Source: Saprospiraceae bacterium (GTDB lineage: Bacteria; Bacteroidota; Bacteroidia; Chitinophagales; Saprospiraceae). From it: a stretch of 64,000 nucleotides of DNA. The position numbers and the translations under genes were made by a program. Of the stretch, positions 13,464 to 63,528 are shown in pieces; within the stretch, counting starts at the first letter, position 1, and every line of letters begins with the position of its first letter. The DNA lies in contig JAZGFD010000085.1 in the NCBI GenBank assembly GCA_036479115.1, positions 11,218-75,217 on the forward strand. The letters are read 5' to 3'. The notes beneath the pieces are model-generated. The model was not told the DNA's origin. It was given only the letters and a program-made list of their open reading frames with translations, and searched no databases.

Positions 13464-13623
13464 GTAACTACTCAGGTGGAGCCAATTTTGGTTTAAAACA
13501 AATTCCTTTTCGACCACATTTCAGCTTTTTTTTCGGCAGCACTCTGAGATGCTTCAAAAAATGATCTCTATCCGAAAAAAAATAACAATTTTTAATCTCA
13601 ATAGCGCCCACCTGAGCGGTTAC
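13464..13623 (+). mobile_element. Family-1 MITE-like element (subtype 1a)
   Basis: Runs from GTAACTACTCAGGTGGAGCCAATTTTGG to GCGCCCACCTGAGCGGTTAC, with terminal inverted repeats. It sits 19 bp upstream of the adaptor start codon. Confidence 0.8.
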
Positions 13624-13745: not shown

Positions 13746-13773
13746 ATGAACACTAACTGTTCATAAATGAACA
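13746..13773. promoter_or_regulatory. Perfect inverted repeat ATGAACA-N5-TGTTCAT followed by a third ATGAACA half-site
   Basis: Read directly: atgaaca ctaac tgttcat aa atgaaca. It lies in the divergent spacer between the efflux operon and the toxin-antitoxin cassette. It is a candidate dimeric regulator binding site. Confidence 0.3.
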
Positions 13774-14190: not shown

Positions 14191-14225
14191 ATGAAATTTT
14201 AGCCTTAATCAAAGAGTAACAAGAA

Positions 14226-14696: not shown

Positions 14697-14714
14697 TGAT
14701 CTACAGTATTGTCT

Positions 14715-15176: not shown

Positions 15177-15182
15177 TAAACA

Positions 15183-15340
15183 GTAACTACTCAAGTGGAG
15201 TCAATTTTGGATAAAAAAATATTTTTTCTACTATTTTTCACCTATTTTTTTTACAATAGCTCTGCTATGCCATAAAAATGAGCTTTATCTGGCAAAATAA
15301 TAACAAATTTTTATCGCAAAAGCGATCACCTGTGTATTAC
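15183..15340 (+). mobile_element. Family-1 MITE-like element (subtype 1a) with 8-bp duplication AATAAACA
   Basis: Termini GTAACTACTCAAGTGGAG and GATCACCTGTGTATTAC. AATAAACA occurs at 15175-82 and again at 15342-49. Confidence 0.8.
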
Positions 15341-15366
15341 CAATAAACATTTGGAATTAAATTTGT

Positions 15367-15607
15367 GGTAAATATTCAGATAGTTTCAAATTAGGCTAAG
15401 AAAAAATGCTCTTATATCACTATACTATGTCAAAGTATGTCTGAAATTGAATATGTGGCACCATAATCGAGATTCACTAACACATATAATGAGTTGGTAA
15501 TAGCGCTGCTATGAATACAAAAAAAAATATGTCAAGCAATAAGATAGCAATTTTTTACCTTCCTGTTTGGCAGACAGATTTCAAAAGCACACCACCGAAG
15601 TAGTTAC
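15367..15607 (+). mobile_element. Family-1 MITE-like element (subtype 1b) carrying one 55-bp module
   Basis: Degenerate left end GTAAATATTCAGATAGTTTCAAATTAGG. Right end GCACACCACCGAAGTAGTTAC. The interior is collinear with the copies at 42983 and 46859. Confidence 0.7.
15444..15498 (+). repeat. 55-bp module (single copy) inside a family-1b element
   Basis: AAATTGAATATGTGGCACCATAATCGAGATTCACTAACACATATAATGAGTTGGT matches the consensus AAATCGAAGATGTGGCGACAYAATCGAGATTCACTAACCAATAA. Confidence 0.7.
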
Positions 15608-15639
15608 AATTTGTGAAAACCTAAAATGAACATTGGGCA

Positions 15640-17019
15640 ATGAAAACCGAAGGAACAATACTAATAGTAGATGATGATGAAGACATTTCGTTTTCGTTAA
15701 AGTTATTATTAGACCAACATTTCTCATCCGTATTCACTGAAAATAACCCTTATCATATACCAAGATTACTGAGGCAGTATTCCCCTGATGTCATTCTGTT
15801 GGATATGAATTTCAAAAAAGGAAACACTGATGGAGAAGAAGGAATTCATTGGCTAAAAAAAATAAGAGAGCTGGATTCTACAGTGCAAGTACTCATGATC
15901 ACTGCCTATAGTGAAGTGGAAGTAGCAGTAAAAACATTAAAATTTGGGGCAGCGGATTTTTTAGAAAAACCTTGGAGAAATGAAAAACTACTGGCTACAG
16001 TTAAAAGTGCATTCACCATTACAAAATCTCTGGCTCAGGTAGACGAATTAGAGTCCCATAAAAAGGTGCTCGCTATGGCTTTGGATGAACCTTTTGCACG
16101 AATTATTGGGACATCTTCCGAGATGGATAAAATCTATAACACTATCTCAAAAGTGGCTAATACCGATGCTCATGTCCTGATTATGGGAGAAAATGGATCG
16201 GGTAAAGAATTGGTGGCCAGAGCCATACATCGCCAATCAAAAAGACACAAAGAGGTATTCATTCCTATCGACTTGGGAGCGATACCTGAGTCTCTGTTCG
16301 AATCAGAATTATTTGGTCATAAAAAAGGAGCATTTACTGATGCGTACGAAGACCGGATAGGAAGATTTGAAGTGTCACATAAGGGCACTATTTTTTTGGA
16401 TGAAATAGGTAATCTATCCACGGGGATGCAAGCAAAATTACTGCAAGTTTTACAAAATAAAGTGATTTATAGAATAGGTGACCCTTCTCCCATCCAGGTG
16501 AACATAAGAGTAATATGTGCCACTAATATGCCACTATACCAGATGGTAGAAGACAAGACATTCCGCCAAGACTTACTCTATAGGATCAATACAATAGAAA
16601 TCAATGTACCTCCCCTGAGAGTAAGAAAAGGCGATTTACCCCTGCTGTGCGATCATTTTTTATCACAATTAAAAAAGAACTACAATCGCCCCGATTTGAC
16701 TATCAATTCTGATAGTTATAAGGCTATGGAGTCTTATGGGTGGCCTGGCAATGTGAGAGAACTCCGACATTTACTAGAAAGAGCCATGATATTATCTGAC
16801 GGAGACGAGATAAAGCCAGAGGGTTTTATTCCTTCCAGAATAAATGGAGATTCTTCTTCAGAATCTTTAAATCTTGACGCACTAGAAAAAAAATATATCC
16901 TCAAAGCATTAGAGATAAATAGGGGAAATATAACTAAAGCATCACGTGACTTAGGCATTACCAGAGCTGCTTTGTACAGAAGATTAGAAAAATATGGCAT
17001 TAACCAAAATGAAGAATAA
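15640..17019 (+). CDS. Sigma-54-dependent response regulator (NtrC/AtoC family: receiver + AAA+ + Fis-type HTH)
   Basis: Receiver domain with DVILLDMNF. Walker A GENGSGKE. GAFTDA (GAFTGA variant), ESELFGH and R-finger region. C-terminal HTH ASRDLGITRAALYRRLEKYG. Confidence 0.9.
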   Translation: MKTEGTILIVDDDEDISFSLKLLLDQHFSSVFTENNPYHIPRLLRQYSPDVILLDMNFKKGNTDGEEGIHWLKKIRELDSTVQVLMITAYSEVEVAVKTLKFGAADFLEKPWRNEKLLATVKSAFTITKSLAQVDELESHKKVLAMALDEPFARIIGTSSEMDKIYNTISKVANTDAHVLIMGENGSGKELVARAIHRQSKRHKEVFIPIDLGAIPESLFESELFGHKKGAFTDAYEDRIGRFEVSHKGTIFLDEIGNLSTGMQAKLLQVLQNKVIYRIGDPSPIQVNIRVICATNMPLYQMVEDKTFRQDLLYRINTIEINVPPLRVRKGDLPLLCDHFLSQLKKNYNRPDLTINSDSYKAMESYGWPGNVRELRHLLERAMILSDGDEIKPEGFIPSRINGDSSSESLNLDALEKKYILKALEINRGNITKASRDLGITRAALYRRLEKYGINQNEE

Positions 17020-17024
17020 TAGAA

Positions 17025-18377
17025 ATGCCATCATCGAAAACTTACATTTTAGACAAATTCCGAACCAAGATTATCATTCATATTTTGATTATGGTATTCT
17101 TGGCTTTGTTTGGTTTTTATCTCACCTATATTAAGGCATCAGTATCGGGTCTTCTGGTGACTGCTTTGATATTTTTTTATACTGTAATAACTCTTTTTAA
17201 GTTAGTCAATAAAACAAACCGTGATCTTGCCCATTTTCTCATGAGTATTAGATTTGATGATTTTGAAACATCTTTTAGCCGCCAAAGTACGTCCAATGGT
17301 AATGATGAAAACTTGCACGAGGTATTTAATCTGATCACCGGAAAATTCAGGGATCTCAGATCGCAAAAAGAATCCCAGCATCAGTTTTTACTATCTCTGG
17401 TAGAGCAAGTGGAAACGGGATTAATATGTTTTGACGATCAATGGCAGACCGTAATGATGAATCGAGCAATGAAAGACATGCTTAGAAAATCATACGTGCC
17501 TTCTCTAAAATCTATTCTAAAAATAGACAAAGGCCTTCATGATACAATGCTTACGCTGTCTCCTGGAGATAAAAAACTATTGGATGTCAATGTTCAAAAT
17601 ACCAGATTACAATTGGCATTGCTGGGCTCTCAGATTAAAATGAATGACGAATTGATCAGGATTTTTGTCATTCAAAATATCAGTACAGAACTGGACAATC
17701 AGGAAATCCGGTCATGGCAAAAACTAATACGAATCTTAACCCATGAGATAATGAATTCTGTAAGTCCCGTGGTTTCACTGGCATCTACAACAGATGATAT
17801 GCTCAAACAGGCCAAAGAACTGGACAAAGAAACTATTTCAAAAATGCACAAAGCCATTCAAGCTATAAAACATAGGGGTGAGGCACTTCTCAGTTTTACA
17901 GAAAGGTACAGAGCTCTTACCAGAGTGCCGCCACCCGTAATGGAGAATGTTGATTTTATTAACCTTGTTGATCAGATTATTGTATTATATGATGCGGAAA
18001 TGAATTCGAAGAATATAGAATTATTAAAGAAGTATCCCAATCACAAATTACAAATCAGTGCTGACCCAGGCCTTCTAGAACAAACGATTATCAACCTTCT
18101 TAAAAACGCAATGGAGGCCGTTAAAGATCAAGATAATGGAAAAATAGAAATACAAATATTTCGAGATAGTCGGAATACAATATTTCAAATTGCAGACAAT
18201 GGAAATGGTATAGAAGAAAGTATGATTGACCAAATATTTATCCCATTTTTTACCACCAAAGATCAAGGGTCAGGTATCGGTTTAAGCCTTAGTAGGCAGA
18301 TTATTCTTATGCATAATGGCACTATTGACGTACAGTCAGAAGTAGAAAAAGGGAGTGTTTTTATAATTAGACTGTAA
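17025..18377 (+). CDS. Sensor histidine kinase (two N-terminal TM helices, HisKA + HATPase_c)
   Basis: H-box LTHEIMNSVSP, N-box LLKNAMEA, G1 DNGNGI, G2 GSGIGLSLS. It starts 5 bp after the regulator gene. Confidence 0.88.
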   Translation: MPSSKTYILDKFRTKIIIHILIMVFLALFGFYLTYIKASVSGLLVTALIFFYTVITLFKLVNKTNRDLAHFLMSIRFDDFETSFSRQSTSNGNDENLHEVFNLITGKFRDLRSQKESQHQFLLSLVEQVETGLICFDDQWQTVMMNRAMKDMLRKSYVPSLKSILKIDKGLHDTMLTLSPGDKKLLDVNVQNTRLQLALLGSQIKMNDELIRIFVIQNISTELDNQEIRSWQKLIRILTHEIMNSVSPVVSLASTTDDMLKQAKELDKETISKMHKAIQAIKHRGEALLSFTERYRALTRVPPPVMENVDFINLVDQIIVLYDAEMNSKNIELLKKYPNHKLQISADPGLLEQTIINLLKNAMEAVKDQDNGKIEIQIFRDSRNTIFQIADNGNGIEESMIDQIFIPFFTTKDQGSGIGLSLSRQIILMHNGTIDVQSEVEKGSVFIIRL

Positions 18378-18538
18378 TGAATATGGGCAATAAAGGTAAT
18401 AACTCAGCAAGTATCAATTTTGATAAAAATGCTCTTTTATAACCTTGAATCGAAAATTTGTGTAAAGGGCGGTTATCAAGTAGTTTTTTTTACAAAAAAA
18501 ATTACTGTAAACTATTATTTTACAACTGTTTAATTATT

Positions 18539-18701
18539 GGGAATTACTGAGGAACAGTCAATTTTAGATGAAAAAAGTTCTTTTTCTACCATATTTCAGC
18601 TATTTTTTTCGGCACAACTTTACTATGCCTCAAAAAATGAACATTACCAGAAAAAAAAATAACAAATTTTTATCTCAAAGGCGCCCATCTGGAGTTGTTA
18701 C
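18539..18701 (+). mobile_element. Family-1 MITE-like element (subtype 1a), flanked by TAATTATT / TTATTATT
   Basis: Termini GGGAATTACTGAGGAACAGTCAATTTTAG and GCGCCCATCTGGAGTTGTTAC. The flanking 8-mers at 18531-38 and 18702-09 match 7/8. Confidence 0.75.
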
Positions 18702-18768
18702 TTATTATTTAGTAAGTATCAGTAATTTATGAGTTGTCTCTAAATTATTGATGTATATTGAGTCCACT

Positions 18769-18943
18769 CGAAAAACTCGCAAAATCAACAAAGTTGACTT
18801 CGACAAGATCTGCATAAAACTTTTGGCGAACTTTACATTTTTCTCAAACCGCTGATACTAAGGGATCACCGAATCTCAAAAAATGCAAATTTGATCCGAA
18901 GCGATTCTTTTTCTGAAAAATGTTAGTTTCCAGCGTAGATTTA
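18769..18943 (+). mobile_element. Family-2 MITE-like element with 4-bp duplication ATAT
   Basis: Termini TGAGTCCACTCGAAAA and degenerate CCAGCGTAGATTTA. Conserved core TTTTGGCGAACTTTACATTTTTCTCAAACCGCTGATACT..ATCACCGAATCTCAAAAAATGCAAATT. ATAT occurs at 18765-68 and 18944-47. Confidence 0.75.
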
Positions 18944-18990
18944 ATATTCAATTATTAGATATTTTTATTAAATGTTAAAAATTCTTTATC

Positions 18991-20250
18991 ATGTTGATTA
19001 GAACAAGTGTATTCAGAAGTTATGTCACCATATTAATCTCTTTATTAGTTTGTAATATAAATTTTGGTCAAGCCGATAAATTCTCTAAAGGGTACATTAT
19101 CTTGACAAATGGGATACTCTCAAAGGTCAGATTAAAAACCTTAGTGCACTTAGCCTTTTTGAATACGTAGTATTTAAAAAAAATAAAAATACTGCACCTA
19201 AAAATTATCACCCTGATGAAATTTCGCATTATTACTTTGGTAATTCAAATTATTATGAGTCAGATTCTGTGGCCTTTAGACATCCTTCATCGGGTATTTA
19301 TTACAAGAAGTTATTTCTAAAAAAAACTTGTAAGAGGAAATATTGAATTATTTCGATTAGATTACCAGATCACTGACAACCCCACAATTCTTTATGAATA
19401 TAACATGAAGTACTATTTTATTCGACAAAAAAAGAATAGCATAATGGTTGATTTACTGGAAAGTAACTTTAAAAGTAATTTGAATAAAATATTGAATAAT
19501 GGGAAATGTATCATAGGTAAAGATTATAAGTACAATGATGATGATCTATCCAATGTAATTTTGAAATATTCAAAATGTACAAATACTCAAAGCGAGAAGG
19601 TATATTCTAAAAGGCCAAAAAGAAAACTAAAAAAAGGTGTTAGTATTGGCATTGCCTCATCAAAATTTACAACCTGAAATAAGGCATTTGAAAACTTTGT
19701 GTCAAACCAAGGATTAGGTTATGACCTCAACTTTTTTATTAACCCACAACTGCTAAGTTGGCTATCATTGAAAGGAGGAATTAATTATAAATTTAGAAAT
19801 TTTAAAAGTTCCAAAGATTTTATTGTTTCTGAGTTTTACGTTAACAAGGGGGAGTCTCTTAAACTAGAATCAAATATTAAAATAAATCAGATAGGCACAT
19901 CTATACAACTCCAATCGTTTTATCAGGTTAATGATTTTTGAACTTATGTGATTTTGGGTGGCTATATGGGGTTTAATTTAAAAAACACAGCATATCTCGA
20001 TAAAACTAAATTTGTACAAACAGACCAGGGAAGCGTATTAGTAACTGATAGAATAGACCCATTTTTATCCAATGTAAATGAATTTGAAATAGGGTGGTCT
20101 ATCGGAGGAGGTCTCGAGTATGCTTTAAATGGCAATCACAGTATGTTTCTTGAAATTCAATATACCAAAGGAGCCAACAGTAATCAAAAAAGCAGTAAGT
20201 TTTATATCTCACAGAAAGCTGTTGTGCTATTGATTGGAGTTTCTTTTTAA
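18991..20250 (+). pseudogene. Outer-membrane beta-barrel (porin-family-like) protein gene broken by several frameshifts and stops
   Basis: It starts with the signal peptide MLIRTSVFRSYVTILISLLVCNINFGQA. Reading continues across at least four frame changes or stops through track ORFs 19405-19677, 19699-19941 and 19948-20250. It ends with the beta-barrel-like tail GWSIGGGLEYALNGNHSMFLEIQYTKG...LLIGVSF. Confidence 0.6.
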
Positions 20251-20293
20251 TATCGCTCATTCCCCTCAAAGGCTATTAAATTGTGTCTGAACG

Positions 20294-20453
20294 GTAACTA
20301 CTCAGGTGGAGCCAATTTTGGACACTAAAAGTTCTTTTTCTACTATTGGAGCTTTTTTTCGCGGTTGCTCTGCTATACCTCAAAAAATGAGCTTTATCTG
20401 GTAAAAAATATCACTTTTTTTACATCAAAAGTGCCCCCCTCCTGTGTAGTTAG
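20294..20453 (+). mobile_element. Family-1 MITE-like element (subtype 1a) nested in the left end of a family-2 element
   Basis: Termini GTAACTACTCAGGTGGAGCCAATTTTGG and GTGCCCCCCTCCTGTGTAGTTAG. It is flanked by TGTCTGAACG (20284-93) and TGTCTGATCG (20454-63). Confidence 0.75.
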
Positions 20454-20612
20454 TGTCTGATCGAAAACTCATCAAAATTAGAAATAGTTTTTTTGGCGAT
20501 ATTTAATTTTTTTTCAACTCGCTGATACTCCGGCATCACAGAATATTAAAAAATGATAATATCATCTAAAATAATTAATTTTTGAAAATTATCTGTTTTC
20601 AGAGCGGACTCA
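20454..20612 (+). mobile_element. Family-2 MITE-like element (divergent copy)
   Basis: Degenerate left end TGTCTGATCGAAAACTC. Core TTTTTGGCGATATTTAATTTTTTTTCAACTCGCTGATACTCCGGCATCAC. Right end CAGAGCGGACTCA. Confidence 0.65.
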
Positions 20613-20832
20613 AAGTTCAACAAAAGTCTTTTTTCATTTTAAGATATTTCGGAGTCAAATTAAAATTATTCATTCACTTAAAATCACTATAGAGTCATCA
20701 AAGAGTATCCTTTAAATAATATTTGTGTGATACAAAATCAAGTCTTTTTTACCCCCTCTAATTAAAAAGCCAATCTATATTTGGCTTATTCTCAATTAAG
20801 TGTAATATTTAGCCGAATAAAAGGTAAAATAC

Positions 20833-22632
20833 ATGAAGCCTACTGATACCAAAGACCCCGAATATTTTCATAAAGTAGTAGATTGCCAGCTTGCTTGCCC
20901 TGCTCATACTCCAGTACCTGAATATATACGACTTATAGCCCAAGAGAAATATACCGAAGCATACATGATCAATTGGGAATCAAATGTATTCCCCGGTATC
21001 CTCGGGAGAACGTGTGATCGCCCATGTGAACCTGCATGTCGAAGAGGCAGAATAGAAGAAGACCCTGTAGCAATTTGTAGATTGAAAAGAGTAGCAGCAG
21101 ATAATAAAGGGGAGGTGAAAAGCCTAATGCCTAAAATCCCTAAAATTAAAAATGGAAAGAAAATAGCCCTTATCGGGGGTGGCCCTGCTTCACTAACGGT
21201 AGCTAGAGATTTGGCTCCTTTGGGTTATGAGATTGATCTGTATGATCAATGGAGTGGTGGTGGCGGAATGATGCGTACTCAAATACCTTCATTTAGGTTG
21301 CCAATAGAAGTGTTGGATGAAGAAGTGAATTATATCCTGGACATGAATATCAATACTCACTTTAACCACTTTGTAGATAGCATGAAGAGTATATTAGACA
21401 AAGATTACGATGCTATTTTAGTAGGAACAGGTGCGCCAAAAGGTAGAAATTTGAATATTGCTGGCAGAGAAGAAGCCGATGCTCATATCCATATTGGAAT
21501 AGAATGGCTAGCAGGTGTAGCTTTTGAGCATATTAAAAAAATAGGTGAAAAAGTAATCGTTTTGGGGGGAGGAAATACAGCAATGGATTGTTGCCGTACT
21601 TCTAAAAGAATAGGAGGGAAAGAAGTAAATGTAGTGGTGAGAAGTGAATTTGAAAGAATGAAGGCATCATCGTGGGAAATAGAAGATGCCATGCATGAAG
21701 AAATAGTAATAACGAATAATAGGCCCCCTAAAGAATTTGTCATGGACAATGGTAAACTAAAGGGTGTCTTATTCGACAAAGTAAATGCAGAATATGATGA
21801 AAATGGAAAACGTACTCTTGTACCCACAGGGGAAGAAGAGTTTATTGAAGCCGATGATGTATTAATAGCAATAGGGCAAGACAATTCATTTCCTTGGATA
21901 GAAAGAGATTTGGGTATAGAGTTTGGCAAATGGAATTTACCTGAACTTGATAAAGTAACGTATCAGTCTACTAATCCGAAAGTGTTTTTTGCAGGTGATG
22001 CTGCATTTGGACCTGAAAATGTGATTACAGCAGTAGCTCAAGGCCATCAAGCAGCCATCTCAATTGACCTGTTTTTGAAAGGAGAAGATGTAAATAAGAG
22101 ACCCGCACCTAGAACTACTTTAAAAAGCCAAAAAATGGGCATCCACGAATGGATGTATGACAGCCCAGTAGTAGATGATATTAGGTATAAAGTGCCTCAT
22201 GCTGATAAAAAGAAGGCGCTCACAGATAGAAAGGTGGAAGTTGAACTTGGTTTCGATGGTTTGATAGGATTTAAGGAAGCCCAAAGATGCCTTAATTGTG
22301 ATGTACAGACAGTTTTTAATACTGATAGATGCATTGAGTGCGATGCTTGCATGGACATTTGCCCTACCAGTTGTATCACTTTTACAGAAAATGGTGAAGA
22401 AGGAGAATTAAGAACAAGGCTCAAAGCTCCTGCGGAAAACCTTTCTCAAGATCTTTATGTATCTGATGTGTTGCCTACAAAAAGAGTGATGGTAAAGGAT
22501 GAAGATGTGTGTGTGCATTGTGGATTATGCGCAGAGCGTTGCCCTACGGCAGCATGGGATATGCAGATGTTTTTTTATAATGTCACAAAATCATGTAGTG
22601 ATGAACTGACCGAAGCGGCTATGGTGGTCTAA
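20833..22632 (+). CDS. GltD-like NAD(P)H-dependent FAD oxidoreductase fused to a C-terminal 2x[4Fe-4S] ferredoxin domain
   Basis: N-terminal Cys cluster CQLACPAHT...CDRPCEPACRRG. Two Rossmann motifs, GGGPAS and GGGNTAMD. C-terminus CLNCD...CIECDACMDICP and CVHCGLCAERCP. Confidence 0.8.
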   Translation: MKPTDTKDPEYFHKVVDCQLACPAHTPVPEYIRLIAQEKYTEAYMINWESNVFPGILGRTCDRPCEPACRRGRIEEDPVAICRLKRVAADNKGEVKSLMPKIPKIKNGKKIALIGGGPASLTVARDLAPLGYEIDLYDQWSGGGGMMRTQIPSFRLPIEVLDEEVNYILDMNINTHFNHFVDSMKSILDKDYDAILVGTGAPKGRNLNIAGREEADAHIHIGIEWLAGVAFEHIKKIGEKVIVLGGGNTAMDCCRTSKRIGGKEVNVVVRSEFERMKASSWEIEDAMHEEIVITNNRPPKEFVMDNGKLKGVLFDKVNAEYDENGKRTLVPTGEEEFIEADDVLIAIGQDNSFPWIERDLGIEFGKWNLPELDKVTYQSTNPKVFFAGDAAFGPENVITAVAQGHQAAISIDLFLKGEDVNKRPAPRTTLKSQKMGIHEWMYDSPVVDDIRYKVPHADKKKALTDRKVEVELGFDGLIGFKEAQRCLNCDVQTVFNTDRCIECDACMDICPTSCITFTENGEEGELRTRLKAPAENLSQDLYVSDVLPTKRVMVKDEDVCVHCGLCAERCPTAAWDMQMFFYNVTKSCSDELTEAAMVV

Positions 22633-22690
22633 GAAGAAGTGAATTTACCGCAAAAATAGAATTTGATTCAAATAATAGAAGTACAATACA

Positions 22691-24523
22691 ATGAGGAGTA
22701 AGGATACTCAAATCTTGGTGAATGATTTCGTAATTCGTTTTGCTAATGTAAACGGCACAGGATCGGCTAGTGCGAATGGGCTTTTCGCAAAAGCAATCTT
22801 CAGAAGTGGAGTGCCTATGGCTCCTAAGAATATTTTTCCATCAAATATACAAGGACTACCTACTTGGTATGAAGTGAGAGTAAGTGAAAAAGGATATCTG
22901 GGCAGGAGAGAAAATATAGACATAATGGTAGGAGTAAACCCTCAAAGTTTTAGAGAAGATGTAGAAAATATAGTTAGTGGTGGGTATTTAGTTTATGATA
23001 ATTCGAGACAGCTCCACTCGGAGTTTTTACGAGATGATATCCAAATGTTGGCCATTCCTATGATGCAATTGAGTATGGATCATTTTGAGGAGCCAAGGCT
23101 TCAACAGCTATTTAAAAATATTATTTACCTAGGAGCTGTGGTTGCACTTTTAAATATAGATATCGAGATAGTGAGGACATTGATAGAAGAACAATTCTCC
23201 AATAAACCCAAGCTAATACCTCCTAATTTCAAGGCTCTTGCAGTAGGGTACGATTTTGCAAAAGAAAATCTAAATTGCCCTCTTAATATTAGGGTGCAAA
23301 AGAGAGATTTAATAGGAGATAAAATCTTAATAGAAGGCAATGAAGCTACTGGTCTTGGTGCTGTATATGGAGGGGCTACTATGATGGCTTGGTATCCTAT
23401 TACGCCTTCCACATCAGTGGCAAAAGCCTATGAAAAACATGGTAACATCCTATTAATAGAAAAAGAAACAGGCAAAAAGAAATTTGCTTTTGTACAAGCA
23501 GAGGATGAACTCGCAGCTATAGGCATGGTAATAGGAGCGGCATGGAATGGAGTAAGGGCATTTACTTCTACCAGTGGGGCTGGTGTGTCTCTTATGAATG
23601 AATTTATTGGTTTGGCATACTTTGCCGAAATACCAGTTTTTTTGGTCAATGTACAGAGAGGCGGCCCTTCTACAGGGATGCCTACTCGTACCCAACAAGG
23701 AGACATGATGTCTACAGCATATGCCTCTCATGGAGATACAAAACACATATTGTTAATACCAAGTACTCCCAATGAGTGTTTTGAAATGTCGTCATTGGGA
23801 TTAGATTTGGCTGATCGTTTTCAAACTCCAGTTATGCTTATGTCAGATTTGGACTTGGGTATGAATGAACATATTACAGAGCCCCTTAAATGGGATAAAA
23901 ACCGTAAATACGATAGAGGCAAAGTGCTGAGTGCTAATGATTTAGAACAGCCTAACTTAGATTGGGGCAGATACCTCGATGTGGATGGTGATGGGATATG
24001 CTACCGTACGATACCTGGGACTCACCCATCTAAAGGGGGATATTTTACCAGAGGCACATCTAGAGATGAATATGCTAAATATTCAGAGAAAGGCGAAGTG
24101 TATCAACGCAATGTAGATCGACTTACATTAAAGTGGAAAACAGCGAAAGAAAAGGTGCCAAAACCAGAATTTTACCAAAAAACCAATGAAGGGAAACATG
24201 GCCTAATTTTTTATGGCACCACAGCCTATCCAGCTGCAGAGGTTATGGACATATTTATTGCAGCGGGTATAACTATGGATTCTATGCGATTGAGAGCATT
24301 TCCGTTTGGATCAGAAGTGGAAAGTTTTATTGATGACCATGAAGAGCTTTTCGTTATAGAGCAAAATAAAGACGGTCAAATGCGTTCGATGATTATCAAT
24401 GAGCTTGATATTAACCCAAAAAAGTTGATACCCATTCTGAATTACGATGGGTATCCTATTACTGCCGGCTATATTTTTGATAAGATCAATGAACATTTGA
24501 GTATCAACGAATTAGTGAAATGA
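22691..24523 (+). CDS. korA: 2-oxoglutarate/2-oxoacid:ferredoxin oxidoreductase subunit alpha
   Basis: 610 aa with the gamma-like N-terminal domain fused to the alpha domain (GNEATGLGAVYGGA...YPITPST...AEDELAA). Followed by the beta subunit gene. Confidence 0.85.
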   Translation: MRSKDTQILVNDFVIRFANVNGTGSASANGLFAKAIFRSGVPMAPKNIFPSNIQGLPTWYEVRVSEKGYLGRRENIDIMVGVNPQSFREDVENIVSGGYLVYDNSRQLHSEFLRDDIQMLAIPMMQLSMDHFEEPRLQQLFKNIIYLGAVVALLNIDIEIVRTLIEEQFSNKPKLIPPNFKALAVGYDFAKENLNCPLNIRVQKRDLIGDKILIEGNEATGLGAVYGGATMMAWYPITPSTSVAKAYEKHGNILLIEKETGKKKFAFVQAEDELAAIGMVIGAAWNGVRAFTSTSGAGVSLMNEFIGLAYFAEIPVFLVNVQRGGPSTGMPTRTQQGDMMSTAYASHGDTKHILLIPSTPNECFEMSSLGLDLADRFQTPVMLMSDLDLGMNEHITEPLKWDKNRKYDRGKVLSANDLEQPNLDWGRYLDVDGDGICYRTIPGTHPSKGGYFTRGTSRDEYAKYSEKGEVYQRNVDRLTLKWKTAKEKVPKPEFYQKTNEGKHGLIFYGTTAYPAAEVMDIFIAAGITMDSMRLRAFPFGSEVESFIDDHEELFVIEQNKDGQMRSMIINELDINPKKLIPILNYDGYPITAGYIFDKINEHLSINELVK

Positions 24524-32897: not shown

Positions 32898-33064
32898 GTA
32901 ATAGTAAGTGGGATAACATTTTTAGAAATTTTCTTACCTATCATTTTTCGTAAATACTTAGGTGAGGCCCATTTTGGGCAAAAAATTATTTTTCTATCAT
33001 ATTTCATCTACATTTTTCGCTTTGGCTCTGCGATATCTCAAAAGGGACCCACTTGAGTAGTTAC
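32898..33064 (+). repeat. Composite of one partial and one internally deleted family-1 element
   Basis: GTAATAGTAAGTGGGATAACATTTTTAG (partial left arm), then GTAAATACTTAGGTGAGGCCCATTTTGGG...GGGACCCACTTGAGTAGTTAC. The central ~45 bp is missing. Confidence 0.6.
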
Positions 33065-34292: not shown

Positions 34293-34371
34293 ATTGATAA
34301 TTAATATCTACAATAGTCACGAGGCTTTACGTATTTATAAATGACCTCATTTTTATATGATCTTGTAACAT

Positions 34372-34578
34372 TGAGTCCACTCCGAAAATTTACAAAATCA
34401 AAAAGTTAACTTTTACAAGCTCTGTATAAATACTTCGACAATCTCTGCAGAAAGCTTTTGGAGAACTTTACATTTTTCTCAATTCGCTGATACTCCGTCA
34501 TCACCGAATCTCCAAAAATGCAAATTCCACCCAAAACGATTCTTTTTCTGAAAAATGTTAGATCCCTGAGTAGACTCA
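34372..34578 (+). mobile_element. Family-2 MITE-like element (with ~23-bp internal duplication)
   Basis: Termini TGAGTCCACTCCGAAAA and CTGAGTAGACTCA. The core is identical in layout to the copies at 18769 and 38554. Confidence 0.75.
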
Positions 34579-34600
34579 GTATTTTAATTGTAAAACTCGG

Positions 34601-34759: not shown

Positions 34760-34858
34760 ATTGAAACTCTGCATAACTGCAATACATGTCACTTTATAAC
34801 ACAAAAATACACGTGCTTTGTAGCCAAAGATGATTACAACGCTATTGTTACAAATATT

Positions 34859-35018
34859 GTAACTACTGGGCTGTAGCCAATTTTGGATAAAAAAGTATTT
34901 TTTTACGATGATTTCAGCTATTTTTTTTGCCTTAACTTTGCTATGCTTTTAAAAATGAGCTTTATCTGTTAAAAAAATAACAAATTTTTATATCAAAGGC
35001 GCCCACCTGGGTAGTTAC
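34859..35018 (+). mobile_element. Family-1 MITE-like element (subtype 1a) with perfect 8-bp duplication CAAATATT
   Basis: Termini GTAACTACTGGGCTGTAGCCAATTTTGG and GCGCCCACCTGGGTAGTTAC. CAAATATT occurs at 34851-58 and 35019-26. Confidence 0.85.
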
Positions 35019-35092
35019 CAAATATTAAATGAATGAGAATAAACTGAACGTAATGATAGTGAATGAAATATTATTGTATTAACTTGTAATCA

Positions 35093-35941
35093 ATGTCCAA
35101 AGCCAATTTTTCATTGAAAATAAAATTCTATGGAACCCGTGGGTCAATTCCTGTTTGTGCACGTAATTTCCAAGATTTTGGAGGTAATACCACATGTATA
35201 TTGATAACCACACCAGATAATGATGCTGTAAGTATTATTGATGCAGGCTCAGGCATTAGAAAATTAGGACAAGATCTTATAGACAGAATAGAAGGAATGC
35301 CTAAGGAAATCACTATTGGGTTTACACATTTTCATTGGGATCACATTCAAGGATTCCCTTTTTTTAAACCTGCTTACAACCCAAAAGTCAAAATTAATAT
35401 TCTCATGATGGGAAGTGATTGGACTTTAGAAAGACTGAAACAAATTATGGTAGATCAAATGGGAGGCGCTTTTTTCCCTATTGATGTGAAGGACATGGGC
35501 GCTCAGTTTAACTATATGATATATGGAAGCAAAGTTTTTTCGCAAAAGAGGGGAATTAGCGTAAAAGCTCGACAACATAATCACCCTGGTGCTGCTTATA
35601 GTTTTAGAATAGAAAGAGAAGGAAAAGTGGCAGTGTTTATTTATGATATAGAACATGGCGAAAAAATAGACCCAGGAGCAGTAGAACTTGCAAAAGATGC
35701 AGACCTTTTAGTACATGAAGCTCAATATACAAATCAAGAGTTAAAATCTAGGAAAGGATGGGGCCACAGTAGCTACGACCAAGCAATAGAAGTAGCCAAA
35801 CGTGCCGGTGTTAAGGAATTAATACTGACTCATCATGATCCAGAACATGATGACAATTTTCTCTTAAAAATGGAAAAGAAATGCCAAAAGATATTTTCTA
35901 ATTGTAGATTGGCTAGAGAAGGAATGGAAATCATTTTATAG
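35093..35941 (+). CDS. MBL-fold metallo-hydrolase
   Basis: HFHWDH metal-binding motif, and HHD near the C-terminus. Confidence 0.8.
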   Translation: MSKANFSLKIKFYGTRGSIPVCARNFQDFGGNTTCILITTPDNDAVSIIDAGSGIRKLGQDLIDRIEGMPKEITIGFTHFHWDHIQGFPFFKPAYNPKVKINILMMGSDWTLERLKQIMVDQMGGAFFPIDVKDMGAQFNYMIYGSKVFSQKRGISVKARQHNHPGAAYSFRIEREGKVAVFIYDIEHGEKIDPGAVELAKDADLLVHEAQYTNQELKSRKGWGHSSYDQAIEVAKRAGVKELILTHHDPEHDDNFLLKMEKKCQKIFSNCRLAREGMEIIL

Positions 35942-36019
35942 AGCCAATCGCTTTCACTATAAATAACTGCACAAAGGGCGGTTTTAACTATAAAAAAATG
36001 GGCTCATCAGAGTAGTTAC
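35941..36019 (+). repeat. Truncated family-1 remnant (right arm only)
   Basis: GAGCCAATCG...AAAGGGCGGTTTTAAC...GGGCTCATCAGAGTAGTTAC. It abuts the MBL gene stop codon. Confidence 0.5.
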
Positions 36020-37663: not shown

Positions 37664-37785
37664 CGTTCTTTTGGCGACATTTTTTATTCAACTCGCTGAA
37701 ACTCAGGCATCACTAAATATCAAAAAACTAAATTCTCAGCCAAAATATTTTATTTCATAAACTTTGACAGTTTCCGTTCAGACAC
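37664..37785 (+). repeat. 5'-truncated family-2 element
   Basis: It begins in the core, TTCTTTTGGCGACATTTTTTATTCAACTCGCTGAAACTCAGGCATCAC, and ends with a degenerate right terminus, GTTTCCGTTCAGACAC. It abuts the Crp gene stop codon. Confidence 0.6.
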
Positions 37786-38463: not shown

Positions 38464-38553
38464 AAAAATGACGCTTTTACCAAACCGTATCTATGTGCGG
38501 TATTCTTTAACAATGAGCGGATTGAAAACAGCAAGAATAGAAGATGCCAAACT

Positions 38554-38738
38554 TGAGTTCACTCCAAAAGGTAACAAAACCAAAAAAAGTTACTTCGTCA
38601 AGCTCTGCATAAAGCTTTTGGCGCACTTAATATTTTTCTCAACTCGCTGATAATCAGGTATCACCGAGTCTCCAAAAATGCAAATTTCATCCGAAACAAT
38701 TCTTTTGCAGAAAAATGTTAGTTTTCTGAGTAGACTCA
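38554..38738 (+). mobile_element. Family-2 MITE-like element with perfect 4-bp duplication AACT
   Basis: Termini TGAGTTCACTCCAAAAGG and TTTTCTGAGTAGACTCA. AACT occurs at 38550-53 and 38739-42. Confidence 0.8.
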
Positions 38739-38748
38739 AACTTGATCT

Positions 38749-38901
38749 TTAGCCACAGCCAATTACTTTTCCCATTCCATAAAAAATAGCTATCCAAACC
38801 AGCCCTTTAATGAAAAAGAAAGCAAATGCTCCCCAGCCTAATCTCTTGAACCAAGTTTTTTTAGACTCTTTTTCAGGATGTTGATTTTCTAATCCTTCCA
38901 T
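38749..38901 (-). CDS. Possible 50-aa small membrane protein (below the ORF-track cutoff)
   Basis: Reverse strand reads MEGLENQHPEKESKKTWFKRLGWGAFAFFFIKGLVWIAIFYGMGKVIGCG*. The ATG at 38901 overlaps the last 13 nt of the upstream gene. It contains one clear hydrophobic helix. Confidence 0.35.
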   Translation of the reverse strand: MEGLENQHPEKESKKTWFKRLGWGAFAFFFIKGLVWIAIFYGMGKVIGCG

Positions 38902-41379: not shown

Positions 41380-41768
41380 GTTCTCAGCAATTCAGAGCGA
41401 AATCAATTAAAAATTGGGCGAAACGTGTAGTTATATCTTAGCATAAGAGTACCTGGCTAGGTGAAGGCAGGTCATTTTACTTTTGAAATATCTGTATAAT
41501 GAATATTTCATAGGATTCTGGACACTATTGTCACAGGTTCCACTATCATATGTCTTAGTATCTCAGGTTATATTTTTTAAGCAAAGGGGGGGGGGCTGAT
41601 AATCTGGCATTATTCTAAGTCTTTTAATTGATTAACATCAATTTATCTTCTTAAACCAACCTGAGTAGTTACCAAATATTTAATTAACTGTAAACTAGCT
41701 TTTTATAGTTTATTATAGTTTGCTCTTTTTCAATACTTTATGCATTCACTCTGAATTGCTGGATAGAA
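41380..41768. repeat. ~390-bp intergenic segment bounded by a long imperfect inverted repeat (perfect 13-bp core CAGCAATTCAGAG)
   Basis: The core is at 41385-41397 and, reverse-complemented, at 41748-41760. Pairing extends to ~23 nt (GTTCT..CAGCAATTCAGAG.GAA). The interior holds a G10 tract and a solo family-1 terminus at 41656-41672. Confidence 0.5.
41586..41595. repeat. Homopolymeric G10 tract
   Basis: Read directly as aaaGGGGGGGGGGctg. This is exceptional in an AT-rich spacer between convergent genes. Confidence 0.9.
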
Positions 41769-41856
41769 CACTGGTTTTTTTACAAAACCATTTTTTTTGT
41801 AACTTTTCAAGCAAAACCAAATTTGGTTAAAAAATGCAGTTATTATGGGGATAACC

Positions 41857-42982: not shown

Positions 42983-43200
42983 GTAACTACTCAGGTGATA
43001 TCAAATTTGGTTAAAAAAACTCTTTTATCACTATACTTCGGCAATTTATGTCTCTAATTCGAAGATGTGGTGATATAAGTCGATATTCACTAACAAATAA
43101 AATACATTATTTATAGCGCTGCTATTAATACAAAAATAGCCTGTGTTTAGCAATAAAATAGCACCTTTTTATCTCAAAAGCACACCACTTGAATAGTTGA
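42983..43200 (+). mobile_element. Family-1 MITE-like element (subtype 1b, one 55-bp module) with perfect 8-bp duplication CATTAGTT
   Basis: Termini GTAACTACTCAGGTGATATCAAATTTGG and GCACACCACTTGAATAGTTGA. CATTAGTT occurs at 42975-82 and 43201-08. Confidence 0.8.
43066..43120 (+). repeat. 55-bp module (single, divergent copy)
   Basis: AATTCGAAGATGTGGTGATATAAGTCGATATTCACTAACAAATAAAATACATTA. Confidence 0.6.
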
Positions 43201-43345: not shown

Positions 43346-43636
43346 GTAACCACTCAGGTGGATCATTTTGAGGCCTGACTGTCAATGAGGTTGGCACAAA
43401 ATTGTTATTTTTTACCAGATAAAATTCATTTGAGATGCAATAACAGCGCTATTCCTATCCTGTTTTATTGATTTGTGAATCTCGATTATGTCGCCATATC
43501 TTCGATTTACTAACTCATTTTATTGGTTAGTGAATCTCGATTATGTCGCCATATCTTCGATTTACATCGAGAAAAGCTGAAATACGGTAGAAAAAGAACT
43601 TTTTTTAGCTAAAACTGGCTCCTTCTGAGCAACAAC
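43346..43636 (-). mobile_element. Family-1 MITE-like element (subtype 1b, two tandem 55-bp modules), inverted relative to 42983-43200
   Basis: Termini GTAACCACTCAGGTGGATCATTTTGAGG and GGCTCCTTCTGAGCAACAAC. The flanking 8-mers AAAAATCC (43338-45) and AAAATTCC (43637-44) match 7/8. Confidence 0.8.
43454..43563 (-). repeat. Two tandem 55-bp modules
   Basis: GTGAATCTCGATTATGTCGCCATATCTTCGATTTA occurs at 43475 and again at 43530, an exact 55-bp period. The two copies are identical over this core. Confidence 0.85.
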
Positions 43637-46858: not shown

Positions 46859-47021
46859 GGGACTACTTCAGGTGGTATCAATTCTGGATAAAAAAAGCTC
46901 TTTTAGCACTATACTGCTGCTATTTGTATTTTAATACTGCTGCTATTAAGACATAAATGAGCCTTGTCTAGCAATAAAATAGCAATTTTTCATCTCAAAA
47001 GCACACCACCTGAGTAATTAC
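46859..47021 (+). mobile_element. Family-1 MITE-like element (subtype 1b, no 55-bp module) with perfect 8-bp duplication AAATAAAA
   Basis: Termini GGGACTACTTCAGGTGGTATCAATTCTGG and GCACACCACCTGAGTAATTAC. AAATAAAA occurs at 46851-58 and 47022-29. It fills the whole spacer between two gene ends. Confidence 0.8.
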
Positions 47022-50543: not shown

Positions 50544-50874
50544 TGAGTCCTACTCTGGAAACCTACATTATTCATAAAAAGAGTTGTTTTGGATGAAATT
50601 TGCATTTTTGGAGATTGGGTGATGCCTGAGTATCAGCGAGTTGAACAAATCGAAGATGTGGGGACACAATCGAGATTCACTAACCAATAAGGTAATTTAG
50701 TAAATCGAAGATGTGGCGACACAATCGAGATTCACTAACCAATAAGATAAGTTAGTAAATTGAAGATGCGGCGACGCAATCGAGATTCATCAATGCATTG
50801 CAATGAGTTGATAAAAATATAAAGTTCGCCAAAAGATTTTTTTTTGGAATTTGTAAGTTTTCGGAATAGACACA
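50544..50874 (-). mobile_element. Family-2 MITE-like element (reverse orientation) expanded by three tandem 55-bp modules
   Basis: Left terminus TGAGTCCTACTCTGGAAACC. Core in reverse complement: AATTTGCATTTTTGGAGATTGGGTGATGCCTGAGTATCAGCGAGTTGA. Three modules follow, then AAAGTTCGCCAAAAG...CGGAATAGACACA. The flanking tetramers AGCA and AGTA match 3/4. Confidence 0.75.
50647..50811 (+). repeat. Three tandem 55-bp modules
   Basis: AAATCGAAGATG starts at 50647 and 50702, and AAATTGAAGATG at 50757, an exact 55-bp period. Copies 1 and 2 are nearly identical. Copy 3 diverges in its 3' half. Confidence 0.85.
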
Positions 50875-51063: not shown

Positions 51064-51248
51064 TTACCATTCCTTAGGTGGAGCCAATTTTGAGTAAAAA
51101 AGTTCTTTCACTACTATATTTCAATTATTTTTTTTTATCATAGTTCTGCTATGTCTCAAAAAATGAGCTTTTTTTGACAAATAACTATCATTATTTTTAC
51201 CTGCTTGATTGTCAGGCAAACCTCAAAAGCACCCATCTGAGTGGTTTT
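51064..51248 (+). mobile_element. Family-1 MITE-like element with degenerate termini and a small internal hairpin insertion
   Basis: TACCATTCCTTAGGTGGAGCCAATTTTGAG...CTCAAAAAATGAGC...CCTGCTTGATTGTCAGGCAAACCTCAAAAGCACCCATCTGAGTGGTTTT. It creates a spurious 21-codon N-terminal extension on the next ORF. Confidence 0.65.
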
Positions 51249-52139: not shown

Positions 52140-52440
52140 TTTTTAGAGCTCTGTCAAGGATAAGTTGAGTGGCACATTTTGGCATTTTTCGAGTCTGCAC
52201 TTCGATAAAAATATTTGCAATAGCTTTGCTACAGAGCGTTTAGGTGCATTTTAAATTGTCGCTTTTCTTACTCATTCCCATGTGTAAGAGAACCTCGATT
52301 GTGTTGCCACATCTTCGCTTTGTCACAATTTTTGTTGACAAAAATTTCGCCAAAGCTAGCTGTATCTCAATATTTAGCTAACGTATTGTTACCTCTCTGA
52401 GGAAATTAACGTCAATCTGAAATGCACCCGATCGTTTTTA
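52140..52440. repeat. Mosaic of degenerate repeat fragments including one reverse-oriented 55-bp module core
   Basis: GAACCTCGATTGTGTTGCCACATCTTCGCTTT (about 52290-52321) is the module core in reverse complement. Family-2-like fragments are present (TTGAGTGGCAC, TTTTTCGAGTCTGCAC, TTTCGCCAAAG). There is a 9-bp inverted pair GGTGCATTT at 52243-51 and 52420-28. Confidence 0.4.
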
Positions 52441-58449: not shown

Positions 58450-59517
58450 ATGAAAATTGTTGCCCAAAGCGCCTCTGATATTGCACTTCTAACCAATGGT
58501 AGAATAGAAGGGGATTCGGATAGAAAAATATGTAATATTTGTAAAATTAATGAACCACAGCCCAATTCTCTATGCTTTTTAGCGAATCTTAAGTATGAAA
58601 AATTCCTCTATTCTAATCATTCGATGACAGTATTAGTGGAAGAAGGATTTATTCCAAAATTAACATCCAAGAATACATTGATATATGTCAATGATGTTTA
58701 TGCGAAATTTTCAAAAGTTTTAAAATTGTATTCAAAAAATGAAAATTTAGTATTTGAAATTGATAAACTTTCTGCTGTATCTAAAAATACTGTGATAGGC
58801 AAACGTGTAAATATTGGAAAGTTTACCGTCGTGCAAGAAGGCTCAGAAATAGGTGACGGGAGTAATATTATGGATCAAGTCTATATAGGGAAAAATGTAA
58901 TAATTGGGAATAATGTACTTATTTATCCTGGTGTGAAAATCTATGATCTAACGGTCATAGGAGATGATGTAGTTATTCATTCCAATGCTGTGATAGGAAG
59001 TGACGGTTTTGGATTTTCTGTCAAAGAAAAGGAATATGATAAAATTCCACAAATAGGAAATGTCATTATAGAAGGCAAAGTAGAAATTGGTAGCTGTACT
59101 ACTATTGATAGGGCCACCATTGGTTCCACATTAATAAAAAAAGGCGCTAAACTTGATAATCTTATCCAAATAGGACACAATGTAGTGATAGGAGAACATG
59201 CTGTTATTGCTGCCCAGACTGGGATTGCAGGCAGTACTGAGATTGGGGCTGGGAGTATGCTCGGAGGACAAGTAGGCATAGCTGGCCACTTAAAAATTGC
59301 TCCTTATTCTCAGATACAAGCAAAATCTGGAGTAGCATCCTCTATTGTAGATTCTGGTAAAAAATGGTATGGATATCCTATTCTTCCATATACAGATTAT
59401 CTAAAGTCATATTCTGTTTTTAAAATACTACCCAGGCTACTAAAAAGAATAGTAGAGATAGAAGAAAAACTAAAGAATGTATCTTTTAAAAATGAAAGAA
59501 ATAATAGTGATTTCTGA
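58450..59517 (+). CDS. lpxD: UDP-3-O-acylglucosamine N-acyltransferase
   Basis: N-terminal LpxD domain, then a long left-handed beta-helix with hexapeptide repeats (IGDGSNI, IGKNVIIGNNVLI, IGDDVVIHSNAVIGSDGFGF, IGHNVVIGEHAVIAAQTGIAGS). Confidence 0.9.
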   Translation: MKIVAQSASDIALLTNGRIEGDSDRKICNICKINEPQPNSLCFLANLKYEKFLYSNHSMTVLVEEGFIPKLTSKNTLIYVNDVYAKFSKVLKLYSKNENLVFEIDKLSAVSKNTVIGKRVNIGKFTVVQEGSEIGDGSNIMDQVYIGKNVIIGNNVLIYPGVKIYDLTVIGDDVVIHSNAVIGSDGFGFSVKEKEYDKIPQIGNVIIEGKVEIGSCTTIDRATIGSTLIKKGAKLDNLIQIGHNVVIGEHAVIAAQTGIAGSTEIGAGSMLGGQVGIAGHLKIAPYSQIQAKSGVASSIVDSGKKWYGYPILPYTDYLKSYSVFKILPRLLKRIVEIEEKLKNVSFKNERNNSDF

Positions 59518-59659
59518 AGTAGTGTGATTTTGAGAAGAAAAATGCTATTATTATTTTAATAAGCACATTTATTAATTGCAGGGTTATTAAAATTAATAAC
59601 AGAAGTATAGCGAGAAAAGAGCTTTTTCAATCCAAAATTGATACCATCTGAGGAGTTAT
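59508..59659 (-). mobile_element. Family-1 MITE-like element (subtype 1b, reverse orientation, degenerate end overlapping the lpxD stop)
   Basis: GTGATTTCTGAAGTAGTGTGATTTTGAGAAG...CCAAAATTGATACCATCTGAGGAGTTAT. It is collinear with the reverse complement of 46859-47021. Confidence 0.65.
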
Positions 59660-63217: not shown

Positions 63218-63528
63218 TAGAATTTGGTGTGACTACAATAGTGTGCGCTTATACGGTAAAAAATTGTAATATGTTTATCAGTTAAATCTCATTAGAGATG
63301 GAAAATGAAGATATGAAGACATAAATTGTATGTACAGCAATGTAAAGTAGATTCGATTATAAATGAACGAATAAATGAGTGGTCAATTAAGATGCATTAA
63401 CACATGAAATAAGTTAATAATAGCAGGGTAAATGCATTGATAATAGCTGACATATGGTAGAAAAATTTTTTACAAAAAATAGGCCTCTAAGGGTCGTTAC
63501 GAAAATGATAAAAAACAATTTTGACACT

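Follow-up and report, generated by a model that had tools for sequence, protein, structure and literature searches.

The feature at the center of this analysis is a 160-bp, non-coding element that lies in intergenic DNA near an MBL-fold gene in a Saprospiraceae metagenome-assembled genome (MAG). As a first-pass annotation had described, the element is bounded on each side by the same 8-bp sequence, CAAATATT. We refer to the whole stretch of DNA analyzed, which is 64,000 nucleotides long, as the window. A protein encoded nearby has a T9SS sorting domain, which fits Bacteroidota. The element belongs to a repeat family (family 1) that was said to recur throughout the window, and it does so: the terminal 16-mer GTAACTACTCAGGTGG has 15 matches with up to 3 mismatches, compared with 0.25 expected from dinucleotide-preserving shuffles, and none of 100 shuffles reached that number. 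An unsupervised repeat search of the window found the same family independently (repeats D4-D8, D11, D13, and D16-D19).

We built an nhmmer profile on the five copies of subtype 1a and ran it over the window. The profile search recovered 11 substantial family-1 copies plus remnants, amounting to ~3.7% of the window (Table 1). The five subtype 1a copies scored E values of 1e-40 to 1e-43, and a second weak fragment, at 63420-63485, was matched in addition to the one tabulated. Most entries of the earlier list of copies were recovered, but two stretches on that list, 32898-32949 and 18464-18490, had no profile match. On average, the window holds one substantial copy in every ~6 kb. The earlier statement that nearly every spacer longer than ~150 bp holds a copy was too strong, since a family-1 copy or remnant is present in 12 of the 19 spacers of at least 150 bp, or in 14 of them if a second repeat family, family 2, is counted as well.

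Family-1 copies are 115 to 291 bp long and intergenic. No ORF of at least 100 amino acids (aa) lies within any copy; hence, the family has no coding capacity, in agreement with its earlier description as non-autonomous. Six of the 11 copies lie 19 to 83 bp from a start codon. The copy at 13464 is 19 bp from the start of an HlyD-like gene, the one beginning at 15368 ends 32 bp upstream of a sigma-54 activator gene, the one at 46859 fills the spacer between two minus-strand genes, and the one at 59508 overlaps the final 10 bp of an ORF (58450-59517). The consensus termini are a perfect inverted match over 16 nt (GTAACTACTCAGGTGG); the ~27 nt of terminal pairing that had been reported extends beyond this point only imperfectly, with indels. 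Two subtypes are distinguished by the sequences adjoining the ends, which are GGTGGAGCC...GGCGCCCACC in subtype 1a and GGTGGTATC...GCACACCACC in subtype 1b. In three of the 1b copies, the interior also contains a 55-bp module, always at one position and in one or two units. A degenerate stretch resembling a left end occurs at 41799-41834, near the solo right terminus.

Table 1. Family-1 copies, remnants, and focal target-site duplications in the window
Feature	Position	Strand	nhmmer match	Evidence
Subtype 1a copy, 160 bp, left end a perfect consensus	13464..13623	+	13464-13622	nhmmer E 1.9e-43
Subtype 1a copy, 159 bp; AATAAACA on each side, 8/8	15183..15341	+	15183-15338	nhmmer E 1.4e-40
Subtype 1b copy, one 55-bp module; AATTTGTG on each side, exact	15368..15607	+		Module in repeat search (D9, D19)
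Subtype 1a copy, 163 bp, degenerate termini; flanks TAATTATT / TTATTATT, 7/8	18539..18701	+	18540-18701	nhmmer E 3.4e-43
Subtype 1a copy, 160 bp; flanks TGTCTGAACG / TGTCTGATCG offset, without clean abutting 8-bp duplication	20294..20453	+	20294-20452	nhmmer E 7e-41
Internally deleted copy, 115 bp, both termini kept	32950..33064	+	32950-33044	nhmmer model positions 1-98, E 6e-14; terminal matches
Left 8-bp target-site duplication CAAATATT of focal copy	34851..34858	.		8/8 match with 35019-35026
Focal MITE copy, subtype 1a, 160 bp; ends GTAACTACTGGGCTGT... / ...ACCTGGGTAGTTAC	34859..35018	+	34859-35018	nhmmer E 2.9e-43
Right 8-bp target-site duplication CAAATATT of focal copy	35019..35026	.		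8/8 match
5'-truncated remnant, right terminus kept, adjoins stop codon of MBL-fold gene	35941..36019	+		Terminal match
Solo right terminus CCAACCTGAGTAGTTAC	41656..41672	+		Terminal match; repeat search D11
Subtype 1b copy, one 55-bp module; CATTAGTT on each side	42983..43200	+	42983-43189	nhmmer; flank comparison
Subtype 1b copy, two tandem 55-bp modules; flanks AAAAATCC / AAAATTCC, 7/8	43346..43636	-	43347-43630	Repeat search D14; nhmmer
Subtype 1b copy, 163 bp; AAATAAAA on each side, 8/8	46859..47021	+	46862-47020	nhmmer E 5.5e-18
Degenerate copy, 22-nt internal insertion	51064..51248	+	51072-51246	nhmmer E 1.9e-22; alignment
Subtype 1b copy; flanks 7/8	59508..59659	-	59528-59658	nhmmer E 5e-8
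Weak fragment resembling right half of element, tentative	63231..63293	-	63231-63293	nhmmer E 2.6e-4

We compared the flanks of 35 short elements bounded by inverted termini; the window contributed 11 of them, and related contigs contributed the other 24. The abutting 8-bp flanks were identical in 17 of the 35 elements and matched at 7 or more of the 8 positions in 24. As a control, right flanks were permuted among the elements, which gave means of 0.55 exact matches and 1.06 matches at 7 or more positions. As a control for register, the right flank was slid by 1 to 3 nt; at most 2 matches were then observed. Exact duplications never reached 9 bp, and the duplicated 8-mers are 81% A+T. Among the 11 window copies, five have a perfect 8-bp duplication and eight have flanks that match at 7 or more positions. 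No clean 8-bp duplication was seen at the copies starting at 13464, 20294, and 51064; the flanks of the first agree at only 5 of 8 positions, indicating that its duplication has decayed. All six duplications listed in the first-pass annotation were confirmed when the flanks were read again. Placing the end of one copy at 15341 rather than 15340 makes AATAAACA abut the element, and placing the start of another at 15368 rather than 15367 reveals a seventh, exact duplication (AATTTGTG/AATTTGTG).

A nested insertion provides separate evidence of movement. In contig L004 (positions 3327-3657), which belongs to another Bacteroidota MAG, Dive96_bin3.134, one family-1 copy lies within another; the inner copy has CTTCAAAA on each side, and the outer copy has GTAATTTT on each side. 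Uninterrupted members of the family have exactly one CTTCAAAA at the position of the inner insertion and thereby permit a comparison of filled and empty sites within the family. The nested unit is also found at the ends of four more contigs of the same MAG. We conclude that family-1 elements transpose, as had been proposed in preference to REP-type behavior.

An independent ENA assembly, which divides the window DNA between two contigs, contains these copies as well. Window positions 10979-23837, with five family-1 copies, are spanned by neither contig. Of three Logan contigs with 100% identity to the window, two (L054 and L056) have both of their ends within family-1 copies. Contigs of a second read set, SRR17063066, match the window at 100% identity, stop within copies, and therefore carry no polymorphism information; as the only other contigs were 100% identical, no strain-level empty site was found in the host. 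Together, the presence of the copies in an independent assembly and the contig ends that fall within them indicate that these are real repeats that break assemblies rather than artifacts.

The family is also found outside this genome. The copies in Dive96_bin3.134 are of subtype 1b, and those in the metagenome Ga0256832 are 93% alike, which indicates a recent burst there. Between different host organisms, the interior of the element is 73% conserved. When contigs were scanned with a longer left end of the MITE, only MITEs were recovered, and a 28-nt left-end pattern found nothing in an initial scan of metagenomes. When the consensus was compared with 72,556 plasmids by BLASTN, a 26-nt match attributable to chance was the only one. 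A scan of viral contigs with the 16-mer gave 31 matches, none of them paired with an inverted partner, which is consistent with chance.

Comparison with relatives of the host was informative at the level of presence and absence. The two nearest relatives (71 to 73% aa identity in the flanking MBL-fold gene) have no copy within ~10 kb of the orthologue. In one of them (L042, 73% identical), an unrelated spacer of 52 bp lies between the MBL-fold and adenosine deaminase genes, where the remnant at 35941..36019 sits in the window. A comparison of orthologous empty sites had been suggested: the relatives do lack the element, synteny with them is partial, and the spacers cannot be aligned at the nucleotide level. 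The pattern named beforehand as evidence against transposition, repeats at the same positions in all relatives, was not seen in these two.

The first-pass annotation had predicted an autonomous, IS66-like partner elsewhere in the genome and had suggested a search for a full-length insertion sequence (IS) with the same termini. We scanned public metagenome contigs for the terminus and obtained 34 loci. Inverted termini 1.45 to 1.74 kb apart were found at L013, L022, and L027 (1453 bp), L024 (1470 bp), L034 (1606 bp), and L015 (1737 bp); the first three are one element in three contexts. A pair of termini 1581 bp apart at L041 was rejected as an IS, being two unrelated fragments. Each IS has one ORF, of 452 to 496 aa, and no other ORF of at least 100 aa (L013, L015, L024, and L034). 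The ORFs match the Pfam domain DDE_Tnp_IS66 (PF03050) at E values of 1e-32 to 3e-36, and also DUF6444. They match the NCBIfam equivalog NF033517, "IS66 family transposase," with 244 to 251 bits, against a curated cutoff of 180.

Because these loci had been picked through one terminus, an independent test was started from the transposase protein. A protein search with the L015 transposase yielded two homologues (55 to 56% identity) on long contigs. One belongs to a 1805-bp IS on a 166-kb contig (L044), and the other belongs to a 1697-bp IS on a 1.36-Mb contig (L048). Both ISs have GTAACTACTCAGGT at both ends and an exact 8-bp duplication, AAAGTATA in L044 and ATTTTTTT in L048. The ISs with MITE-like ends span 1453 to 1805 bp, with ends GTAACTACTCAGGT(GG), and the terminal 14 to 16 nt of the MITE are identical to the ends of six distinct ISs. 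Six transposases are 32 to 55% identical to that of L015, and aligned residues D237, D288, E405, and K412, a D, D, E(+7 K) pattern, are invariant, as is a CxxC...CxC zinc finger.

Some relatives of these ISs have different ends. The IS at L092, on a long contig named Salinivirgaceae, has an exact 8-bp duplication, TTGTTAGG, on each side, and its ends have diverged to GTTACTACTCAAC and GTTACAGCTCAGC; the counterparts at L088 and L090 are GTAACTACTCAAC and GTTACACCTCAGC. The diverged ends occur in a subclade that is 56 to 57% identical (L088 and L092), which indicates that the end sequence is not universal in the clade. A contig labeled "Thiomicrorhabdus" from the same sample carries nearly the same IS as the Salinivirgaceae contig. 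Since near-identical ISs occur under discordant MAG labels, these labels look unreliable, and we treat claims that cross phyla cautiously.

No 8-bp duplication flanks the ISs that lie on metagenomic contigs of short or medium length (L013, L022, L027, L024, L015, L034, L046, and L047). On our assumption, this plausibly reflects chimeric assembly across a multicopy repeat. No recovered IS matches the MITE past the terminal 14 to 16 nt (at best, 36 identities over 45 nt in the L034 IRL), and hence, none is established as its direct parent. Neither the window nor ~8 further kb of its 76-kb contig (JAZHCG011083970.1, GCA_044240345.1) holds a transposase gene, of the IS66 family or otherwise. ISs with the same ends and an IS66-family transposase were found in metagenomic contigs, and in this sense the predicted IS66-like partner was borne out; judging from the ends, the 8-bp repeat, and the single-ORF architecture, it can be putatively assigned more narrowly to the ISBst12-type branch of IS66. 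Family-1 elements are short and non-coding and have inverted ends, duplications, evidence of insertion, and ends shared with ISs, which are all the properties of a MITE that we tested. We conclude that the ~160-bp repeat is a genuine family of non-coding MITEs that very probably use an IS66/ISBst12-type transposase.

These data suggest the following model. The element would be a non-coding DNA of 150 to 165 bp, or up to 291 bp with 55-bp modules, whose inverted ends of ~16 nt (GTAACTACTCAGGTGG) would serve as binding and cleavage sites for a DDE transposase belonging to the ISBst12-like branch of IS66, which has a single ORF. An autonomous IS elsewhere in the cell, with predicted ends GTAACTACTCAGGTGGAGCC... 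and ...GGCGCCCACCTGAGTAGTTAC, would supply the transposase, which would act in trans on both ends. Insertion into AT-rich intergenic DNA would proceed through an 8-bp staggered cut, the repair of which would generate the 8-bp direct duplications. We infer the mobilization in trans in this genome, the identity of the helper IS, and any effects on neighboring genes.

The window copies are 60 to 79% identical in pairwise comparisons (mean, 69 to 74%), which bears on whether the family still moves. The helper IS may have been lost from the lineage, leaving the copies as immobile relics that are decaying or have been co-opted. The low identity of the copies is in keeping with such a loss, as are the several copies that are truncated, internally deleted, or reduced to solo ends and the lack of an IS in the window and ~8 further kb of contig. 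However, insertions as old as the divergence between copies would, by our estimate, leave only about one in ten duplications perfect ((0.87)^16), and the proportions observed in the window (5 of 11 perfect; 8 of 11 with 7 or more matches) are above this expectation. In addition, the same family is 93% homogeneous, and recently active, in another organism. Weighing these points, we consider loss of the helper possible but doubtful. It concerns present activity only and is compatible with an origin of the MITEs from IS66. That approximately half of the copies have perfect duplications despite a copy identity as low as ~74% suggests, as a rough inference, that several already-diverged source copies inserted over a long period, rather than in one recent burst.

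We also considered whether the repeats are structured non-coding RNAs or regulatory hairpins, such as terminators, attenuators, or REP/BIME elements spread by RAYT, that are kept by selection. Their intergenic position, with 6 of 11 copies at 19 to 83 bp from a start codon, and the 73% conservation of the interior across different hosts would fit such a role. Single copies also fold into long hairpins relative to shuffles, with z scores of -2.5 (the focal copy, which folds through its termini) and -4.95, but this is simply pairing of the inverted ends. For 17 copies from three organisms, the consensus fold has an energy of only -2.07 kcal/mol and gains no stabilization from covariation (term, +0.98), and an Rfam search found no family at threshold. 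Around the focal copy, predicted promoters and terminators were at chance level. Visual inspection of the ends for the -7 motif of Bacteroidota (TAnnTTTG) showed only a 7/8 match (CAATTTTG). Membership in REP/BIME, which are imperfect palindromes of 20 to 40 nt without target duplications, was rejected, as the units here are 160 bp long with 8-bp duplications. Moreover, spread of REP by RAYT yields neither abutting 8-bp duplications nor a nested insertion, and the element is absent from syntenic sites in relatives. Maintenance as an RNA or regulatory element is therefore very unlikely.

Several IS families produce 8-bp duplications, and no helper IS was found in the window and ~8 further kb of contig, but it is scarcely credible that another such family (ISL3, IS1595, IS6, or IS256) moves the MITE and that its likeness to IS66 ends is coincidental: ends of those families start with GG rather than GTAA, at least six distinct ISs whose sole ORF is an IS66-family transposase share the terminal 14 to 16 nt exactly, two ISs were selected by protein similarity alone, independently of their ends, and ISDge4, a characterized element discussed below, independently supports the IS66 link.

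Through the assignment to IS66, a MITE family becomes connected with the ISBst12 branch, a little-studied group of single-ORF elements. It offers a compact natural substrate for studying ISBst12-type transposases, consisting of two 16-nt ends and an 8-bp duplication. For annotation, it accounts for a repeat at which assemblies of this Saprospiraceae MAG and of related MAGs break up. With about one element per 6 kb, often 20 to 80 bp from start codons, the family may influence the transcription of many genes.

The ends themselves have a wide distribution. Transposases that are just 32 to 55% identical keep the GTAACTACTCAG... end. Several short elements that are unrelated to one another have these ends as well: the 160-bp family described here; a ~195-bp family in Ga0256832; a 72-bp element (L011); and a GC-rich element of 182 bp with a 7/8 duplication (L002), on a contig of 51% GC binned as Nitrospirota. 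The hosts appear to include Deinococcus, Bacteroidota, and the GC-rich contig binned as Nitrospirota, the bin labels of MAGs being uncertain. As a tentative extension, which we regard as rather less than probable, the ISBst12 branch of IS66 might use the GTAACTACTCAG... end as a near-universal "address." Any ISBst12-type IS that enters a cell could then reawaken resident MITEs, which would account for the persistence of a diverged and very dense family in a genome that possibly lacks a helper of its own. Under the same reading, these elements would form a MITE superfamily linked to IS66, the first to be described.

IS66 elements proper (IS66, IS679, and ISRm14) have three ORFs, tnpA, tnpB, and tnpC. 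They share with the autonomous elements described here the DDE transposase recognized by the same Pfam and NCBIfam models, GTAA ends, and an 8-bp duplication. In contrast, neither tnpA nor tnpB is present in the elements described here, which have GTAACTAC... ends; ends of classical IS66 elements read GTAAGCG.... The closer likeness is to the ISBst12 group, which includes ISBst12 of Geobacillus stearothermophilus and ISDge4 of Deinococcus geothermalis and has GTAAC ends that, in ISDge4, are nearly identical to GTAACTACTCAGGT, in addition to the common 8-bp repeat. The autonomous ISs also share the architecture of that group: they are 1.45 to 1.8 kb long and have one ORF of ~450 to 500 aa, with tnpA and tnpB absent. 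ISDge4, which belongs to the ISBst12 group of the IS66 family, has the ends GTGACTACTCAGCA/GTAACTGCTCAGCA, and its single ORF encodes a transposase of 449 aa; it has a direct repeat of 8 bp, and its transposition has been observed (PMC12898284, 2026). Unlike members of the group, the window element has no transposase and is a 160-bp derivative rather than an IS; the hosts also differ, being Bacteroidota MAGs here and Deinococcus or Bacillota for the ISBst12-group examples.

In the literature searched, we found no IS66-derived MITE and no paper that contains the terminus. IS66 and Bacteroidota are both absent from a 2024 review of MITEs in prokaryotes, and the only paper found on a MITE in Bacteroidota concerns an IS982 derivative in Cardinium. 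In other respects, family 1 resembles classical MITEs (Correia/NEMIS of Neisseria, ERIC, RUP, Nezha, MITEAba12, and the IS982-derived MITE of Cardinium), which are likewise short, non-coding, intergenic, and multicopy. Both have inverted repeats, target-site duplications, and hairpin folds, and both break short-read assemblies (PMC10969869, PMC9769881). ERIC is present at 30 to 711 copies per genome (PMC10969869); if the window is representative, the density of family 1 lies at the upper end of reported bacterial values, an extrapolation that is unsafe from one contig. The difference from classical MITEs lies in the helper family, which here is IS66/ISBst12. We conclude that the biology of family 1 is that of conventional, well-understood selfish DNA, with a helper family that is unusual for a MITE.

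The window holds a second repeat family, family 2, with a unit of ~200 bp and inverted ends (TTGAGTCCACTCC...GGAGTRGACTCA) that bear no relation to those of the family-1 MITEs. Family-2 copies often adjoin family-1 copies within shared spacers. Family 2 is probably another MITE, with a helper different from that of family 1.

A 55-bp module (AAATCGAAGATGTGGCGACACAATCGAGATTCACTAACCAATAAGATAAGTTAGT) is found in both families and once on its own (see the table). Three family-1b copies carry it, as one or two units and always at the same internal position. Small hairpins are present within the module, and an Rfam search with its sequence gave no match. Possibly the module is a very small insertion element in its own right, the third after families 1 and 2; alternatively, it may have been captured a single time and then dispersed by the MITEs.

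Family-2 copies, 55-bp modules, and elements with family-1 ends outside the window (L numbers denote related metagenomic contigs; all other coordinates refer to the window)
Feature	Position	Orientation or context
Family-2 copy	18757-18960	
Family-2 copy	34370-34595	
Family-2 copy	38552-38755	
Family-2 copy	59671-59851	
Family-2 copy	about 50570-50870	reverse
Family-2 partial copy	20491-20582	
Family-2 partial copy	37665-37756	
55-bp module	15429-15483	inside family-1b copy
55-bp module	43080-43136	inside family-1b copy
55-bp module	43452-43561	inside family-1b copy
55-bp module, tandem array of 2.6 units	50647-50789	inside reverse-oriented family-2 copy
55-bp module, lone occurrence	52265-52319	
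Nested composite	L004 3327-3657; contig ends of L003, L005, L006 (both ends), and L007	Dive96_bin3.134
GC-rich 182-bp element with family-1 termini	L002 2852-3033	

Among the genes of the window, a tandem array at 2021-9315, which continues leftwards on the contig (L051), comprises six or more paralogous genes for MacB/FtsX-type ABC permeases (about 790 to 817 aa each). Genes for ABC ATPases and HlyD-like proteins adjoin it, and the array, whose genes are tightly packed, is free of family-1 copies. Two adjacent family-1 copies lie directly downstream of a toxin-antitoxin pair (14226-15176) made up of a RES-domain toxin and an Xre-like antitoxin. The last 10 bp of an LpxD-like ORF (58450-59517) are overlapped by the reverse 1b copy at 59508-59659, and the element may therefore supply its present stop codon.

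Contigs assigned to Thiomicrorhabdus sp. and to Salinivirgaceae (L088-L092) share a near-identical IS66-type element. Both sets come from one sample series and have a GC content of 34-38%. This case suggests that IS-bearing contigs are mis-binned in MAGs.

In the Bacteroidota MAG Dive96_bin3.134, a 1b copy lies within another copy, inserted at CTTCAAAA, and this nested composite seems to have multiplied as one unit. The 182-bp element lies on a contig of 51% GC binned as Nitrospirota, where it overlaps mechanically listed ORFs; its 8-bp duplication matches at 7 of 8 positions (CCAACGAG versus CCCACGAG). This element shows that family-1 ends serve an unrelated interior in a host that, as binned, is very different.
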